From positions 1 to 46,852 of the forward strand of contig CBFIBF010000006.1 of assembly GCA_965660795.1 (NCBI GenBank): a DNA stretch of 46,852 bases, in the 5' to 3' direction. The stretch's first letter is position 1, and each line of letters opens with the position of its first letter. This DNA is from Gammaproteobacteria bacterium (GTDB lineage: Bacteria > Pseudomonadota > Gammaproteobacteria > GCA-002705445 > GCA-002716945). A program made the translations under genes and the position numbers. The notes under the pieces were generated by a model, which was not told the origin of the DNA, searched no databases, and was given only the letters and a program-made list of their open reading frames with translations. This document shows positions 1 to 5,875 of the stretch, piece by piece.

Positions 1-1
1 T

Positions 2-442
2 TACTTTCAAAAGCCAAAAAATAATTTCAAATATTTTTATATTGCAGGTTTCAAAATTGGTGTAATGATATGTTGGGATCAGTGGCATATGAATTCATAT
101 GCATTTATGAAAAAAAACAATATCAACCTAATAATTTGTCCTACTGCAATTGGGTATTGCTTTTACAAAAAGAGAATTTTTAACTTAAAAAATGAACAAC
201 GTAAATGGCTTGATGTCATCAAAGCTAATAGTCTTATGATAAATACACCAATGATTGTCGCCAATAGAATTGGTAATGAAACAGAAGTAAATCGAGCTAT
301 AAAGTTTTGGGGTAATAGCTTCATTACAGATTCTAATGGTAATATTGTAAAAAAATGCAAATCAAGACAGTCTGTGGTACTTCATAAAATAGACTTCCGT
401 GATCAAAATACAGCAAAAAAATCATGGAATTTTCTAAATTAA
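2..442 (+). CDS. aguB: Carbon-nitrogen hydrolase, N-carbamoylputrescine amidase-like (5'-truncated by window edge)
   Basis: Frame open from base 2 (YFSKAKNNFKYFYIAGFKIGVMICWDQW...); nitrilase-family catalytic Cys motif ICWDQW, plus PTAIG, ANRIG and FWGNSF motifs typical of AguB. Confidence 0.7.
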   Translation, partial: YFQKPKNNFKYFYIAGFKIGVMICWDQWHMNSYAFMKKNNINLIICPTAIGYCFYKKRIFNLKNEQRKWLDVIKANSLMINTPMIVANRIGNETEVNRAIKFWGNSFITDSNGNIVKKCKSRQSVVLHKIDFRDQNTAKKSWNFLN

Positions 443-472
443 GCAATAATTTAGTGATTATTATAAAAAAAC

Positions 473-502
473 ATGTCAAATCTCATAAGTAAGCATTATA
501 AT
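473..502 (+). promoter_or_regulatory. Putative sigma70 promoter for the peptide/rhodanese operon
   Basis: ATGTCA (473-478, 4/6 match to -35), 18-nt spacer, perfect TATAAT (497-502); AT-rich background weakens the call. Confidence 0.45.
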
Positions 503-547
503 ATTCATAATTCAATCAGTGCTTAAAATAAAGGAGATTTTTACACA

Positions 548-700
548 ATGAGAAACTACTTTTTGCTATTAGCAATGCTTATTATGAGTATTTCAATATC
601 TCAACCATCGTTTGCAGATAATGAAATAACCCCAAATATAATATTTGCTGAGGATGGGGAAAAAAAGTCTTCAGATGATGAAGAGCCAGATTGTGAATAA
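548..700 (+). CDS. Small secreted acidic peptide, 50 aa, C-terminal DDEEPDCE with single Cys (not in ORF track)
   Basis: Manual translation MRNYFLLLAMLIMSISISQPSFADNEITPNIIFAEDGEKKSSDDEEPDCE*; SD AAGGAG at 531-536; Sec-type signal (basic N-terminus, hydrophobic core, P-S-F-A|D); stop 15 nt before the rhodanese start. Confidence 0.85.
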   Translation: MRNYFLLLAMLIMSISISQPSFADNEITPNIIFAEDGEKKSSDDEEPDCE

Positions 701-715
701 TTAATGGGAGGAGAT

Positions 716-1396
716 ATGTTAAAAATTAAACATAACGTATTATCAGCTGCTCTACTCTCTTTTGTTCTTGTATCGTTTTCTGCATTTGCAGGTAAACCAG
801 TTGCAATTTCAAAAGCAGATGGTCCAAATTCACTTGAATTAGGACTTTCAGTATCAGTTGGTGAACATAAAATCATGAGAAACCAAGATAACAGTGCAAC
901 AGTTAATCCTGCTTTTGCTAAAACTTCTAGACCTTGTCCGCCATTTTGCATTCAACCAATGCAATTAAGACCAGGTATTGAAACTCTTGGTGAACAAGAA
1001 TTAATTCATTATGCTGTTATGATGAGTAAAGGACAAAAGATGCCAGATGGCTCAGAGATCATGCTTATAGACTCTAGAACACCTGATTGGGTCGCTAAAG
1101 GAACAATCCCTGGTGCAGTGAACTTACCTTGGACTCTTTTGAGTGAAAGAAAAGGTGCGGATCCGCTATCTATAGCTGAATTAATGACTAGTAAATTTGG
1201 CGCTAAAGAGCAAAATGGGCTTTACTATTTTGATGATGCAAAAACCTTAGTTTTGTTTTGTAACGGAATGTGGTGCGGTCAATCACCTAATAACATTAAA
1301 AGTCTACTAAGATACGGATATCCAGCAAATAAAATTAAATGGTACCGTGGTGGTATGCAAAACTGGGAAAACTTAGGATTTAATACCGTTAAATAA
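716..1396 (+). CDS. Secreted/periplasmic rhodanese-domain sulfurtransferase, SoxL-like
   Basis: Start moved to ATG 716 (SD GGAGGAG 707-713); signal peptide ending AFA|G; motifs RPCPPFCIQPM, IDSR, GTIPGAVNLP, FCNGMWCGQS, WYRGGMQNW. Confidence 0.88.
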   Translation: MLKIKHNVLSAALLSFVLVSFSAFAGKPVAISKADGPNSLELGLSVSVGEHKIMRNQDNSATVNPAFAKTSRPCPPFCIQPMQLRPGIETLGEQELIHYAVMMSKGQKMPDGSEIMLIDSRTPDWVAKGTIPGAVNLPWTLLSERKGADPLSIAELMTSKFGAKEQNGLYYFDDAKTLVLFCNGMWCGQSPNNIKSLLRYGYPANKIKWYRGGMQNWENLGFNTVK

Positions 1397-1413
1397 AACA
1401 ATATTATCCGATT

Positions 1414-1448
1414 AAGCAGCACATGATTAAATGTGCTGCTTTTTTTTT
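1414..1448 (+). terminator. Rho-independent terminator of the peptide/rhodanese operon
   Basis: Stem AAGCAGCACAT / ATGTGCTGCTT with loop GATTAA, followed by a T-run to 1448. Confidence 0.9.
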
Positions 1449-1454
1449 GAAATT

Positions 1455-4400
1455 ATGAAACAACTTAATAAAGGTTTCAATGTTGTAAAAAATATTGTTG
1501 GCTCCTCTTATATCATTGAAATAGATGAGCTATCAAAAAAATATAAAAGTACACTAATAATTTTAGACAATAATCATCAAATTGATGCTTTATATAATGA
1601 ATTATCAAGACTATATAAATCAAAAAAAATTCTTAAATTTCCAAATTATGGACTTGATGATTATAGCAACGTCGCGATTGACAAAGATATAATTAAAGAC
1701 AGATATGAATGTTTGATAGAGTTATCTCTTAATGCTGACAATAAAATAATAATTACATCCTACAGGTCAATATTTTACAAAATTCCACAATTAAATGAAA
1801 CATTAAAATCATGGAAAAAAATTGACAAGTACATAAAATATAACGAACTTATAGATAGATTAAAGTCTTTTAATTATGAAAAAACATCTAAGGTTATTGA
1901 GCCTGGTCAATATCGAATATCAGGATCAATTGTAGACTTCTTTTCTATATCTTCACATGATCCTGTAAGAGTAAATTTTTTTGAAGATAGTATAGAATCT
2001 TTAAAAATATTTAATTCAACTACTCAATTAACAAAAAATGATATTGATAGCAGCATACTCACATCTGAGTGCATTTATCACTTAGATCAAAAAAATATTG
2101 AATTTTATAAAGCAAACGTAAAAAAATATTTTGATTCTGAATATGTCGAAGATATTGAGTATGAGAAGGTTATTTCAAATGATAGTAAAAATTATATTCA
2201 TAACCTAATCCCTATGCTCTTCAGAGAAACAGAGTCATTAATATCATCGCTTGGTAATAATTTAGTTTGCTTCATGAACAAAAATTTTCATGAAGAATAT
2301 AATGACTTCAGAAATACATTAAATAAAATCTATGATAATGAAATATTTAACAGATATCTTATTAAACCAGATGAACTAATAATAAGTGAAAAAGATATTG
2401 AACATATTATCGACAATAATTATTTTTATATAGCATCTGATTATATGAAAGATATGGATTTTCATAAATCTAGCTATACAACTGTACCGTCACTGTCTAT
2501 CAATTATAATTATAAAAATCCATTTATAAATTTAGAAAAAGTTATTTTTAATACTGAATATAATTTTATATTTTTTATAGAAAGAAGTGATAATTATAAA
2601 ACATTAACAGACTACCTAAATTCTCAAAATATTGAATTCTATGAAACGGATAATATAGGTATTTCAAGTAATAAAATTCAAATAATGAGAGAACATATAA
2701 ACGAAGGATTTATTGATAATAATAAAAAAATTATCTATGTCAGCTCCAATGATCTTTTTGGACTTATTAAGACACGATTATCTTCTAAAGAAATACTCAA
2801 ATCATCAGTTATTGATAACCTTACTCAAATAAAATTCAATGATTATATTGTTCACCAAGAACATGGAATAGGAAGATATAAAGGTCTTGAAATCATGAAT
2901 ATCGAAAATAAAGTAACAGAATTAGTCAAGATTGAATACGCAGATAATAATAATCTTTATATGCCTATTACTTCTTTATCTTTAATACAAAAATATATTG
3001 GAAATACTGGAATCAATACTAAACTTTCAGAGTTAGGGACAGACAGATGGCTAAAAGTTAAACAAAGAGCTAAAAAGAAAATTGAGGATATTGCTGCTGA
3101 ATTACTGACCATTCAAGCACAAAGAGAACTTAATAAAGGTTATAAATTTAATGTAGATGCACATGAATATGGAAAATTCTGTAATTTGTTTCCATATGTT
3201 GAAACAGACGACCAATTAAGCAGCATAAATCAAGTGATTGAAGATATGTGTTCATCAAAAGCTATGGATAGAGTTATCTGTGGAGATGTAGGTTTTGGAA
3301 AAACAGAAGTGATACTGAGGGCCGCATTTGTTGCAATTAATAATAATAAACAAGTGGTTGTGATAGTACCTACAACTGTACTAGCTAAACAGCATTACGA
3401 TACATTTACAAAAAGATTTATAAATTATGATACTAAAATTGAATTGATGACACGTGCAGTTTCACAAAAAGAAAAAATAGATATCAAAAATAATTTGTTA
3501 AAAAGTAAAACTAATATAGTAATAGGTACTCATGCATTATTGAATAAAGAAATTAAATATGCAGATTTAGGATTATTAATTATAGATGAAGAGCATAAAT
3601 TTGGCGTTAAACATAAAGAATCTATTAAAAATATTAAAAATAATATTGATGTTTTGACATTAACTGCAACACCTATTCCTAGAACTCTTAATAATGCTCT
3701 CTCAGAAATCAAAGATATGAGCATTATTAATACTCCTCCTATAGGAAGAAAAAATATACAGACGAATATTATTAATAAATCAGAAAGTGAGATTAGAGAA
3801 TACATAGATCGTGAAATAACTAGAGGTGGACAAGTTTTATATATTCATAACAGAATTGAAACTATGAATGACGAGATATCATATTTAAGAGAAATAAATT
3901 CAAATTATAAAATTGATAATGTTCATGGAAGAATGTCAACACAACAAATTCAAAAAGTGATGAATAGTTTTTTGAGTGAAAAAACAAACATACTTATTTG
4001 TACAAGTATAATTGAAAGCGGCTTAGATATGACTAATGTAAATACAATTATAATAAATAATGCTCAAAATTTTGGTTTATCTCAACTTCATCAAATTAGA
4101 GGTAGGGTTGGAAGAAGTGCAAAACAAGCATATGCAGGAATGATAGTTGATGATCAAAATAAACTTACAAATGAAGCTCAAAAAAGGATGGATGCATTTA
4201 TAAACACCAACAGTTTAGCCGGAGGACTAGATATAGCTAGTCATGATCTAGAAATTAGAGGTGCTGGTGAACTTTTAGGGGAGGAGCAAAGCGGACAAAT
4301 TACTGAGATTGGTTATGGCATGTATACCTCTATGCTCTCACGTGCTGTTAATCGGCTTAAGAATATTGATGAAGCAGATGATACAAATCAAGTTGAAATT

Positions 4401-4823
4401 GACGCGTTCGAATCAACATTAATTCCTCAAGATTATATAGAGGATATATTTCAAAGGTTGGATTTTTATAAGGATATCTCAAGCGCTACAAATGATCATA
4501 CTATTAATGAAATTATGACGAAATTAATTGATATATATGGACCTATACCAGAACACTTGTTAAATCTCATAGATCTTAGCCGAGTAAAAATTGCAGGAAG
4601 CGCATTAGGTGCGCAAAGAATAAAAATTAATAGAGATAATGTTGTAATAGTCCTAAATGATGAAAATTCAATAGATACTGAAACTCTTGTAAATATATAT
4701 ACAAATTCAAAAAGAATTAAAATTATCAATAGCAATCAAATTAAATACTCGATTGAATCAGATGGAAGTTTCTCAAATATTTGTTCTGAAATCATAAAAG
4801 TAATATCTGAAATTACGTGTTAG
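1455..4823 (+). CDS. mfd: Transcription-repair coupling factor Mfd
   Basis: CarD-like RID (YIVHQEHGIGRY), GDVGFGKT, DEEH, TATPIPRT, QIRGRVGRS, DLEIRGAG TRG motif; ATG 1431 lies inside the terminator stem so 1455 is preferred. Confidence 0.96.
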   Translation: MKQLNKGFNVVKNIVGSSYIIEIDELSKKYKSTLIILDNNHQIDALYNELSRLYKSKKILKFPNYGLDDYSNVAIDKDIIKDRYECLIELSLNADNKIIITSYRSIFYKIPQLNETLKSWKKIDKYIKYNELIDRLKSFNYEKTSKVIEPGQYRISGSIVDFFSISSHDPVRVNFFEDSIESLKIFNSTTQLTKNDIDSSILTSECIYHLDQKNIEFYKANVKKYFDSEYVEDIEYEKVISNDSKNYIHNLIPMLFRETESLISSLGNNLVCFMNKNFHEEYNDFRNTLNKIYDNEIFNRYLIKPDELIISEKDIEHIIDNNYFYIASDYMKDMDFHKSSYTTVPSLSINYNYKNPFINLEKVIFNTEYNFIFFIERSDNYKTLTDYLNSQNIEFYETDNIGISSNKIQIMREHINEGFIDNNKKIIYVSSNDLFGLIKTRLSSKEILKSSVIDNLTQIKFNDYIVHQEHGIGRYKGLEIMNIENKVTELVKIEYADNNNLYMPITSLSLIQKYIGNTGINTKLSELGTDRWLKVKQRAKKKIEDIAAELLTIQAQRELNKGYKFNVDAHEYGKFCNLFPYVETDDQLSSINQVIEDMCSSKAMDRVICGDVGFGKTEVILRAAFVAINNNKQVVVIVPTTVLAKQHYDTFTKRFINYDTKIELMTRAVSQKEKIDIKNNLLKSKTNIVIGTHALLNKEIKYADLGLLIIDEEHKFGVKHKESIKNIKNNIDVLTLTATPIPRTLNNALSEIKDMSIINTPPIGRKNIQTNIINKSESEIREYIDREITRGGQVLYIHNRIETMNDEISYLREINSNYKIDNVHGRMSTQQIQKVMNSFLSEKTNILICTSIIESGLDMTNVNTIIINNAQNFGLSQLHQIRGRVGRSAKQAYAGMIVDDQNKLTNEAQKRMDAFINTNSLAGGLDIASHDLEIRGAGELLGEEQSGQITEIGYGMYTSMLSRAVNRLKNIDEADDTNQVEIDAFESTLIPQDYIEDIFQRLDFYKDISSATNDHTINEIMTKLIDIYGPIPEHLLNLIDLSRVKIAGSALGAQRIKINRDNVVIVLNDENSIDTETLVNIYTNSKRIKIINSNQIKYSIESDGSFSNICSEIIKVISEITC

Positions 4824-5875
4824 TTCTTATTAATAAATACTGTTGATGTAGGGTAAGCAATTTCAGCATTATGATTTTCGATAATTTCTGCGATTTCAAA
4901 TAGTATACCTTGTTTAATAGATAGAAATTCTTCCCAATCTTTTGTAACTGTAAATGCATAAACAAAAAAGTCACATGAAGAAGGCGCAAAGCTTTTAAAA
5001 TATACTTTTGGTTTAATGTTCTGATCTATTTTTGAATTTTTTTCCAAAGCATTTCTGACATCATTAAGTATAAGGTTCATGTTTTTAAGATCATCATATC
5101 TAATTCCTATTGTTTCATTTAATCTTCTATTCGACATTCGTGTAGCATTTTCAACGATAATACTTGAAAATGCGGTATTTGGAATATACAGAATATTTTT
5201 TGAAAAGGTTCTTACGACCGTTAATCTCCACCCAATCTTCTCAACAATACCTTCGATATTTCTATCTGGGGATTTAATAAATTCACCTACTCTAAATGGC
5301 CTATCAAAAAAGATCATCATCCCACCGAAGAAATTAGAAAGAAGATCTTTTGCAGCTAAACCTACAATTAACCCACCAACACCACCAAATGCTAAAAGAC
5401 CAGATATGCTTAATCCCAATTCTTGCATGATTAATAAAATTGCAATCACTACAACAATAACTTTAATTATTCGGACGACTATTTCATATGTCTCAGTTAC
5501 TAAGGCTGCGTCATCTTCTGCAGAGGTATTTTTTAAAAAAGGTTTAGAATCAATATAAAAATTTAAACCCCTTTGAATTGACCATGAAATTAGTATAACC
5601 ATTAAAATGAATATAGATGATGATAAATGGAAATCATAAATTATAATTTTTTCATTATTAAGATAATTAAGAAGTAGCAATAAATAACCAATTATAATTA
5701 AATATGAAGATGGTGTTTTTACTGAATAAAGTAAAAGTTCATCATAAACTGTATTTGTTTTTTTTGACAAAGATAATATGACATTAATGATTTTATTTTT
5801 TAATGTCAGCAAAAATACGGCCGCGACACTTAAAGTGATCAAATCAAAATGTGCATTATCAAGTATTAAATTCAT
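4820..5875 (-). CDS. mscS: MscS-family small-conductance mechanosensitive channel (YnaI-like)
   Basis: Multiple TM helices; LLAFGGVGGLIVGLAAKDLLSNFFGG, DRPFRVGE, EGIVEKIGWRLT, IAYPT. Confidence 0.93.
   Translation of the reverse strand: MNLILDNAHFDLITLSVAAVFLLTLKNKIINVILSLSKKTNTVYDELLLYSVKTPSSYLIIIGYLLLLLNYLNNEKIIIYDFHLSSSIFILMVILISWSIQRGLNFYIDSKPFLKNTSAEDDAALVTETYEIVVRIIKVIVVVIAILLIMQELGLSISGLLAFGGVGGLIVGLAAKDLLSNFFGGMMIFFDRPFRVGEFIKSPDRNIEGIVEKIGWRLTVVRTFSKNILYIPNTAFSSIIVENATRMSNRRLNETIGIRYDDLKNMNLILNDVRNALEKNSKIDQNIKPKVYFKSFAPSSCDFFVYAFTVTKDWEEFLSIKQGILFEIAEIIENHNAEIAYPTSTVFINKN

Follow-up and report, generated by a model that had tools for sequence, protein, structure and literature searches.

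A conserved gene pair for a small acidic peptide with a penultimate cysteine and a four-cysteine rhodanese-family protein: a candidate periplasmic sulfur relay

What do two small genes that lie together near the start of a 46,852-nucleotide stretch of gammaproteobacterial DNA (contig CBFIBF010000006.1, assembly GCA_965660795.1; the whole stretch is called the window here) encode, and do their products act on each other? The two open reading frames (ORFs) stand on the same strand between a gene for an AguB-like carbon-nitrogen hydrolase, which ends at 442, and mfd. The first encodes a precursor of 50 amino acids, termed the peptide, and the second a rhodanese-family protein, termed the enzyme. 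The genes are conserved as a pair, they co-occur and they keep company with genes of sulfur oxidation; comparison of many genomes supports the view that the pairing is real. As for the function, we give an even chance to a periplasmic thiol or sulfane-sulfur relay, in which the penultimate cysteine of the peptide would be the reaction partner of the enzyme. The unit is composed of the following elements:

473-502, forward strand: sigma-70-like promoter match (ATGTCA, 18 nucleotides, TATAAT) with 10/12 matches, a candidate only
531-536, forward strand: Shine-Dalgarno sequence AAGGAG, 11 nucleotides 5' of the peptide start codon, read directly from the sequence
548-700, forward strand: peptide gene, stop included; 50-amino-acid precursor, predicted mature part of about 27 amino acids with net charge -9; homologous ORFs upstream of the enzyme in 88/110 loci
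548-616, forward strand: Sec signal peptide predicted for the peptide (residues 1-23, with S-F-A at its end), from inspection and a hydrophobicity rule
683-697, forward strand: conserved C-terminal tail E-P-D-C-E with Cys49 penultimate, from family conservation; the motif occurs once in the genome
707-713, forward strand: Shine-Dalgarno sequence GGAGGAG, 5' of the enzyme start codon, read directly from the sequence
716-1396, forward strand: enzyme gene, stop included; secreted-looking two-part rhodanese-family protein of 226 amino acids, PF00581 on residues 108-219
935-949, forward strand: CPPFC motif (Cys74, Cys78), within an N-terminal part without family match; unchanged in 13/13 close homologues
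1259-1276, forward strand: rhodanese active-site loop C-N-G-M-W-C (Cys182, Cys187; C-x4-C), from homologue and PDB profile alignments
1414-1449, forward strand: intrinsic terminator of an 11-bp stem, a 6-nucleotide loop and a T run; fold -18.2 kcal/mol, z -5.4

The peptide ORF has one cysteine, at residue 49, and its TAA stop occupies 698-700; after 15 nucleotides the enzyme ORF begins with ATG 716 (a further in-frame ATG lies at 704) and runs to the stop at 1394-1396. A purine-rich Shine-Dalgarno string precedes each ORF. The peptide precursor starts with a basic N-terminus and a hydrophobic core that extends to S-F-A, and the other 27 residues, of net charge -9, end in E-P-D-C-E, while the enzyme has a signal-like N-terminus that extends to A-F-A. 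The preliminary description of this locus had proposed a two-gene unit among housekeeping genes, with strong Shine-Dalgarno sequences and Sec-type signal peptides on both genes, and all three points were recovered here, the signal peptides as predictions by eye and by a simple hydrophobicity rule.

Judged by its sequence relatives, the peptide is a member of a real, unannotated small-protein family. A search of 5.8 billion proteins with its profile yielded 435 protein clusters at E <= 0.01; the members are all unnamed or called 'hypothetical protein' and no cluster carries a Pfam domain. Neither Pfam nor NCBIfam contains a model of the peptide, and the peptide itself has no Pfam match at E <= 1; the preliminary description had warned that an ORF for 50 amino acids is easily missed by annotation. 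The layout of the family is a signal peptide, a variable part, an acidic tract and a C-terminal E-P-[D/E]-C-[D/E]. By the simple hydrophobicity rule, an N-terminal lysine or arginine followed by a hydrophobic core is present in 77 of 83 distinct peptides. Counted over 88 peptides from the last residue backwards, the tail has glutamate at position -5 in 85, proline at -4 in 82 and cysteine at -2 in 86, with aspartate or glutamate at -3 and -1. The middle diverges freely: over 42 aligned rows column identity averages 27% and P47 and C49 alone never change, although a loose hydrophobic-then-acidic pattern (N-I-I-F-A-E-D in the window copy) can be recognised 7-18 residues before the cysteine in 37 of the 83. 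The peptide had been described as a single-cysteine one, which holds in this genus and fails across the family: the mature part of the 83 distinct peptides has one cysteine in 39, two in 30, three in 4 and five in 10.

Two readings of the peptide that depart from thiol exchange with the enzyme can be weighed against these properties. A short conserved ORF next to an enzyme gene, constant at its end and variable in its middle, might encode the precursor of a modified or exported small product, that is a signal or something akin to a ribosomally synthesised and post-translationally modified peptide, with the enzyme as its tailoring enzyme. We regard this as very improbable, as the precursor carries a Sec-type signal peptide and not a leader, its conserved part comprises the last five residues only, and the unit is devoid of a maturation protease, a transporter, and radical-SAM or other tailoring genes. 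Alternatively, the peptide could bind a metal in the periplasm (copper, zinc, iron or a toxic thiophilic metal) and be handled or loaded by the rhodanese-like protein. The combination of a poly-acidic tract with a thiol fits this idea, as do the ten peptides with five cysteines, which are arranged in a regular pattern; however, one cysteine with carboxylates makes a poor specific site, no metal-handling genes are found among the frequent neighbours, and the association that does exist is with sulfur-oxidation genes (see below), which leaves metal binding improbable as well, if a little less so.

The enzyme, in turn, is on sequence grounds a distinct four-cysteine subfamily of rhodaneses, characterised by CPPFC and C-x4-C. 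The Pfam Rhodanese model (PF00581) covers residues 108-219 with 50.3 bits against a cut-off of 22.2, and residues 26-100 match no family. In the set of 13 close homologues (60-81% identical to the enzyme) the strings F-A-K-T-S-R-x-C-P-P-F-C-[IV]-Q-P and F-C-N-G-x-W-C-G-Q-S-P are invariant. At 50% clustering the enzyme family has 767 representatives at E <= 1e-3 and 75 at E <= 1e-30; among 56 diverse homologues D119 and R121 are invariant, and the cysteines are kept in 47 (C74), 49 (C78), 45 (C182) and 40 (C187). A PDB search with the profile of these 56 rows gave BH2092 as the best match (3o3w and 3nhv; E 3e-7 and 9e-7), over the rhodanese domain only, and one with the 13-row profile gave no match at E <= 0.01. 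The matches to rhodaneses of solved structure are weak. C182 aligns with the loop cysteine of 3d1p and with the first cysteine of the C-x4-C of 3nhv, and is one residue off in 6yub; these loop cysteines we take to be the catalytic residues. The enzyme stays below the cut-off of every specific NCBIfam model; TIGR03865 (PQQ-dependent catabolism-associated CXXCW protein) reaches 27.2 bits versus a required 128.05, over the last 50 residues only. The names given to the enzyme in source databases are all generic ('rhodanese-like', 'sulfurtransferase'), and a Protein Atlas search with it returned generic rhodanese clusters only.

The wider family also contains unusual forms. In P0121 the whole two-part module is duplicated in tandem (449 amino acids), in P0227 an enzyme-like part with degenerate cysteine motifs is fused to PilJ-type sensor domains, and P0151 has a long acidic N-terminal extension free of cysteine. 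A distant homologue at G197:C3:931438-931983 (locus L168), with unrecognisable cysteine motifs, is broken by five in-frame TGA codons and could be a pseudogene, a frame artefact or a case of recoding.

How tightly are the two genes bound to each other? A whole-genome search detected the enzyme in 38 of 61 relatives' genomes, including 31 of the 36 of the same family. Upstream of it, on the same strand, 28 of 30 relatives' loci have a peptide ORF that ends in E-P-[DE]-C-[DE]-stop; of the two misses, one has only 85 nucleotides of upstream sequence and the other contains masked bases. When one genome per species was scanned with the enzyme alignment, at least 600 stretches matched, of which at least 574 were confirmed by tblastn, and the best 80 of these confirmed loci, almost all from Gammaproteobacteria, were combined with the 30 relatives' loci. 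In the resulting 110 loci a peptide-type ORF lies within 950 nucleotides upstream of the enzyme in 88, and the conserved upstream peptide that the preliminary description had asked for in the neighbourhoods of rhodanese homologues is thus in place. Thioalkalispiraceae, Ectothiorhodospiraceae, Chromatiaceae and Litorivicinus are among the groups with the pair in their loci. Three loci assigned to an 'uncultured Halobacteria archaeon' (L047, L049, L080) have enzymes that group with the gammaproteobacterial ones, with mfd present, and look like mislabelled or contaminated bins.

The class was also sampled evenly (201 genomes, 198 genera). The enzyme family is present in 39 of these genomes at E <= 1e-40 and in 44 at E <= 1e-10; the 49 loci from the sample plus three others contain 53 enzyme genes, and 14 of them have an upstream peptide. 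A quick maximum-likelihood tree was built from 148 enzyme rows, after seven rows with less than 300 nucleotides upstream and no peptide had been dropped and seven identical rows merged. In it 88 of the 90 peptide-bearing rows fall into one group of 112 (SH-aLRT, an approximate likelihood-ratio support value, 80, which is weak), and the other two form a separate small clade with good support. The presence of the peptide requires at least 13 changes on the tree (well-supported branches force five of these), whereas shuffled labels need 46 on average, and 0 of 500 shuffles were as low. Therefore, the peptide appears to belong to one enzyme subfamily and to have been lost or moved several times.

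When the peptide is not adjacent it may still be present. Five genomes have an enzyme within the peptide-bearing group and no adjacent peptide; the tail-plus-stop pattern occurs in three of them, one match being judged chance. Two Arenicellales genomes possess a free-standing signal-peptide ORF with the same tail 28-33 kb from the enzyme, and in a third genome with a peptide-less enzyme there is a second enzyme copy with its own upstream peptide. The free-standing genes are L173:1312-1518 and L175:1294-1518, the latter flanked by two unrelated ORFs, one large and one resembling a membrane transporter. Over all 201 genomes the pattern gave 24 matches in 23 genomes, against 13 matches in 12 genomes for a reversed-pattern control. 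When read individually, the 24 comprised 11 known adjacent peptides, 3 more peptide-like ORFs (G222, the second one in G148, and G125), 5 matches ending in TGG and 5 chance ORFs, while three tail variants (G149, G121, G163) escape the pattern. The matches set aside as chance after reading were L172, G211, G067, G112, G157 and G127. With variants counted, a peptide-like gene is present in 16 sample genomes and the enzyme family in 15 of these 16, versus a base rate of 39/201.

Small ORFs are easily over-read, and many of these genomes share the gene order between the Lol genes, aguAB and mfd, with mfd downstream of the enzyme as conserved synteny in 27 of the 80 loci; one might hence suspect that the small ORF is untranslated or unrelated to the enzyme in function, and that their adjacency is mere synteny. 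The data disfavour this explanation, which we hold to be extremely improbable: the frame, the stop position and the tail of five residues persist from order to order in an ORF that otherwise diverges freely, an unlinked peptide gene is kept at another place in the genome, and the peptide is almost confined to enzyme-bearing genomes. Adjacency in 88 of 110 loci, co-occurrence when unlinked and near-restriction to one subfamily together support a pairing that is real and conserved, as far as comparison of sequences can tell, and with it that part of the earlier proposal which concerns the pairing of peptide and rhodanese. The window's own pair has the whole set of features, i.e., a small ORF for a predicted secreted product, the acidic tract, the tail and an enzyme with both cysteine pairs.

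In which kind of metabolism does the pair reside? The genome of the window contains dsrA (1.2e-185), with a weaker dsrA-family match adjoining it at the place expected for dsrB, two DsrE-family genes downstream of these two, and also aprA and soxY; the assembly, which is 92% complete, gave no match for SoxB, the RuBisCO large subunit, the flavocytochrome-c sulfide dehydrogenase domain or rhodopsin. Across the class sample, in counts made by hand over genomes of different genera and with kinship ignored, SoxY is present in 35 and DsrA in 28 of the 39 strong enzyme carriers (E <= 1e-40), at least one of them in 37, whereas the 157 genomes that have no enzyme match at E <= 1e-10 contain SoxY in 55 and DsrA in 29. 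For the 14 genomes with an adjacent peptide the numbers are 13 and 12. The phylogenetic profiling against sox and dsr genes that had been suggested beforehand thus came out as an enrichment.

The neighbours of the enzyme point in the same direction. Directly downstream of it, 17 of the 80 loci encode a secreted DsrE-like protein with one invariant cysteine (L106:4762-5394, L045:5158-5703 and 15 further loci); it occurs in two forms, one with a strong and one with a weak match to Pfam DsrE, and has no NCBIfam match. A periplasmic protein of the DsrE family is unusual. Six loci (L041, L044, L045, L048, L051, L059) have an extended cluster, in which the peptide and the enzyme are followed by a thioredoxin-like protein (C-x-x-C), the DsrE-like protein, a 79-amino-acid ORF, a DUF3530 hydrolase and a 429-amino-acid redoxin, and five of the six also have, upstream and in divergent orientation, a gene for a double-thioredoxin protein. 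The thioredoxin-like neighbours have weak matches to DsbH, DsbD and the C-terminal part of TsoB. The flavoprotein of flavocytochrome-c sulfide dehydrogenase (FccB) is encoded no farther than 3.5 kb from the enzyme in 4 of the 49 sample loci (L141, L143, L147, L160), and an SQR-like flavoprotein in one (L130). The frequent neighbour clusters that were annotated for the 80 and the 49 loci include no Sox protein. Weak rhodanese matches lie near soxY in G121, G175 and G197; the one inspected, that of G121 beside a soxXYZA cluster, has 107 amino acids and no signal peptide, CPPFC or C-x4-C. Taken together, the SoxY and DsrA enrichment and the DsrE-like, thioredoxin-like, FccB and SQR-like neighbours support a link of the enzyme family with sulfur oxidation.

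How could such a pair work? Rhodaneses carry persulfide on a loop cysteine, and because of this established chemistry the cysteine of the peptide is proposed as the reaction partner of the enzyme, most likely as an acceptor of sulfane sulfur. One small unit would thus make two periplasmic partners, a thiol enzyme of the rhodanese family and a dedicated acidic peptide of about 27 residues. The enzyme would take sulfane sulfur onto Cys182 from thiosulfate, polysulfide or another periplasmic species of zero-valent sulfur. The anionic tail of the peptide would then enter the active-site region, and its cysteine would either accept the sulfur or form a mixed disulfide; the product would be a persulfide or polysulfane of the peptide, soluble and anionic. 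The loaded peptide could move sulfur among periplasmic partners in bacteria that use the Sox and reverse-Dsr routes, while the resetting of the enzyme by thiol-disulfide exchange would fall to the second loop cysteine and the CPPFC pair, as resolving or relay thiols. Secretion of both products, their direct contact and every chemical step, its direction included, are what we infer in this scheme.

The same cysteines admit a different use. In the main rival explanation the peptide would be a glutathione-like monothiol co-substrate and the enzyme a periplasmic reductase or thiol-disulfide enzyme, whose C-x4-C or CPPFC would be oxidised in turnover and reset via mixed disulfides with the peptide cysteine; the peptide would end as a disulfide-linked dimer or be re-reduced by thioredoxin-like proteins. 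The two conserved cysteine pairs, versus the single cysteine of classical rhodaneses, speak for this possibility, as do the thioredoxin-, DsbH- and DsbD-like neighbours of some loci and the existence of TsoB, a counterpart with selenocysteine in place of cysteine (UxxxxU) that is fused to a DsbD-like electron conduit. In the window, however, the unit is without a thioredoxin-like neighbour; sulfur handling, over general redox buffering, is indicated by the FccB and DsrE-like neighbours and by the association with SoxY and DsrA, and a single-cysteine peptide made stoichiometrically from one gene would be an expensive reductant. We therefore consider the co-substrate explanation unlikely, although it is the one to be taken most seriously next to the sulfur relay.

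Several observations weigh against the relay, or at least against a simple form of it. The first group concerns the association with sulfur oxidation, which was counted with kinship ignored: 4 of the 39 enzyme carriers have no SoxY and 11 of 39 no DsrA. A second group concerns the peptide. It is not found within 1 kb of 39 of the 53 sampled enzyme genes, no ORF ending in E-P-[DE]-C-[DE]-stop exists anywhere in five genomes with a peptide-less enzyme, and many enzymes of the wider family have no peptide, so that the enzyme must have a function independent of it; conversely, G125 has a peptide-like ORF and no enzyme match. At 14 peptide-less enzyme genes no consistent alternative small partner was found beside them. 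In another clade of the enzyme the upstream gene encodes a different secreted protein of about 120-135 amino acids with shared motifs, no conserved cysteine and no Pfam match. It is present in 10 of the 49 sample loci (L152, L154, L156-L159, L162, where there are two copies, L163, L165 and L166; examples are L163:3115-3489 and L158:3041-3442), and suggests that acting as a thiol carrier is no requirement for the small partners of this family. Finally, over 73 pairs there is no clean co-variation between the tail variants (D or E at -3 and -1) and residues of the enzyme. The columns of highest mutual information lie in the signal peptide and variable regions, look phylogenetic and were rejected as evidence.

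Charge is a further point of comparison. The enzyme cores (equivalents of residues 53-226) have a median net charge of +2 and an isoelectric point of 8.4 when a peptide is adjacent (n = 90), versus -1 and 6.4 when it is not (n = 58), and K146 in the K-G-A-D-P loop is kept in 94% of the former and 31% of the latter; the Arenicellales enzymes, with unlinked peptides, are acidic (-3 to -5). The complementarity of a peptide of -9 and enzyme cores of median +2 is suggestive, with the reservation that kinship is ignored here too. A complex prediction with enzyme residues 26-226 (56 rows) and peptide residues 21-50 (42 rows) scored 0.02 in both of two runs made without controls, which weighs neither for nor against contact of the two. 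Could the peptide be a partner without catalytic role, such as a regulator, an active-site cap, an adaptor or a chaperone, whose acidic tail occupies or protects the active site (e.g., against over-oxidation in oxic sea water) or targets the enzyme elsewhere? Charge complementarity, the Cys-free secreted partner of the other clade and the many peptide-less members of the enzyme family would all agree with it. It follows next after the co-substrate and is distinctly less probable, as the cysteine is near-invariant (86/88) and its distance from the C-terminus fixed, which points to thiol chemistry over mere binding. The relay, with the peptide cysteine as reaction partner, is the reading retained below, at the even chance given to it above.

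Is the unit transcribed as one? Promoter-like sites occur at chance frequency in this DNA of 32% G+C (34 found versus 36.4 +/- 6.2 expected), and because such sites are no commoner than chance the site at 473-502 is only a candidate; the TATAAT promoter noticed earlier is there, and its weight as evidence has gone. The intrinsic terminator noticed with it has fared better. The hairpin at 1414-1441 has an 11-bp stem with five G-C pairs followed by a T run, it is one of two terminator-like sites in positions 1-5000, and 0 of 200 shuffles fold as well as its RNA. An Rfam scan of 380-1520 gave sub-threshold hairpin matches only, on the terminator. Sixteen runs labelled as RNA contain part of this stretch, and contigs of four metatranscriptome runs from four studies were mapped to 300-1700. 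Contigs about 95-97% alike to the window cover 581-1419, 622-1406, 535-1149, and 627-736 plus 707-1296, and the junction of peptide and enzyme is bridged in each of the four runs. Those of two libraries end at 1406 and 1419; in the assembled contigs of these four runs none reaches the upstream hydrolase or mfd and there is no cover outside 535-1427. This is a weak hint, in agreement with the terminator, that 535-1419 is one RNA; being assembled contigs with no DNA run for comparison, they are no proof of a single transcript.

The surroundings of the unit are those of a housekeeping region in a small genome (32% G+C, 1.0 Mb in 88 contigs, 92% complete). The remainder of the first 18 kb encodes an MscS-type channel, a GH3 hydrolase, IspF, IspD, enolase, a DAHP-synthase-family enzyme, CTP synthase, a PP-loop protein, AccA and DnaE. 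The longest mfd ORF (1431-4823) begins within the terminator hairpin, at ATG 1431. The start at ATG 1456 seems likelier, so that the terminator would sit within a very short intergenic gap. The real SoxY of this genome is encoded away from the peptide-enzyme unit.

What would a peptide of this kind be needed for? In the parts consulted of two papers, the periplasmic carriers of zero-valent sulfur proposed for sulfur oxidisers without SoxCD are small organic persulfides, and the carrier itself is described as unidentified (PMC3397948; PMC10892978); the formation of such persulfides, the enzymes and the transporters are stated as not known in the corresponding part of a 2024 genome paper (PMC10892978). 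The present pair bears on how these oxidisers route zero-valent sulfur through the periplasm to cytoplasmic Dsr. The peptide might be the missing organic thiol of periplasmic sulfur mobilisation, loaded by the rhodanese, capping and solubilising zero-valent sulfur as a strongly anionic persulfide or polysulfane and handing it towards the cytoplasmic reverse-Dsr system. So specific a role is doubtful; if it were true, the peptide would be an analogue, made on the ribosome, of those low-molecular-weight persulfide carriers that have been proposed for purple sulfur bacteria. In any case the pair is widespread (435 peptide clusters, at least 574 enzyme relatives confirmed by tblastn) and is retained in streamlined marine genomes of 1 Mb, and it defines an unannotated small-protein family together with a four-cysteine rhodanese subfamily that is now labelled only 'rhodanese-like'.

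Which known systems resemble it? No description of the peptide-enzyme pair was found in Pfam, NCBIfam or the literature searched, from which subscription papers, including the original SoxL work, were outside coverage, and the motif strings of peptide and enzyme gave nothing relevant in the same literature; within these bounds the earlier statement that no system of this architecture has been characterised stands. The closest structural match, BH2092 of Bacillus halodurans (3nhv, 3o3w), shares the C-x4-C loop with the enzyme and lacks the N-terminal CPPFC part; it is a structural-genomics protein for which a literature search by name and PDB codes found no function. Like the enzyme, Sud of Wolinella succinogenes and PspE of E. 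coli are secreted proteins of rhodanese fold that hold sulfane sulfur on a loop cysteine, and Sud binds polysulfide chains, as the consulted part of one paper states (PMC3397948). PspE is among the PDB matches of the enzyme profile (2jtq, E 4.7e-4, residues 108-136 only) and Sud is absent from its 60 best. Unlike the enzyme, both have one cysteine only, no CPPFC-bearing N-terminal part and no known dedicated peptide partner.

TsoB resembles the enzyme in the arrangement of its redox residues. This rhodanese/DsbD-fusion selenoprotein (NF045694) is listed with the motif UxxxxU in the table of a 2026 review, the part of it consulted (PMC13188914), and its two redox residues in the rhodanese domain are spaced by four like those of C-x4-C. 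Since TsoB has selenocysteine at both positions of the same spacing, the C-x4-C pair of the enzyme is probably redox-active. In other respects the two differ: the enzyme scores 15.9 bits against the cut-off of 805 and has no DsbD fusion and no selenocysteine, being a protein of 226 amino acids with cysteines and without membrane or thioredoxin parts, and TsoB has no known peptide partner.

SoxL is encoded in soxXAKL. The SoxL of Allochromatium vinosum (Alvin_2171) is given, in the consulted part of the source, as a periplasmic sulfurtransferase of a sulfur oxidiser without SoxCD (PMC10892978). The enzyme, judged on gene context, differs from it: in the window its neighbours are the aguB-like gene and mfd, and none of the loci examined has it next to sox genes, which leaves the label 'SoxL-like' used in the preliminary description without support from gene context. 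The peptide, likened there to a minimal SoxY, is not a SoxY either, for it has neither a SoxY domain (PF13501) nor the GGCGG arm that is seen in the SoxY of locus L169, and ends in E-P-[DE]-C-[DE]. What it does share with SoxY and with DsrC/TusE is a reactive cysteine at or next to the C-terminus of a flexible segment; the sulfur-binding Cys111 of DsrC is likewise penultimate, according to the consulted part of one report (PMC3397948). SoxY and DsrC, however, are folded proteins of about 100 residues or more, and the peptide has about 27. If the scheme proposed here is true, what sets it apart from all of these systems would be a thiol-based sulfur relay with a free, ribosomally made mini-peptide as the carrier.

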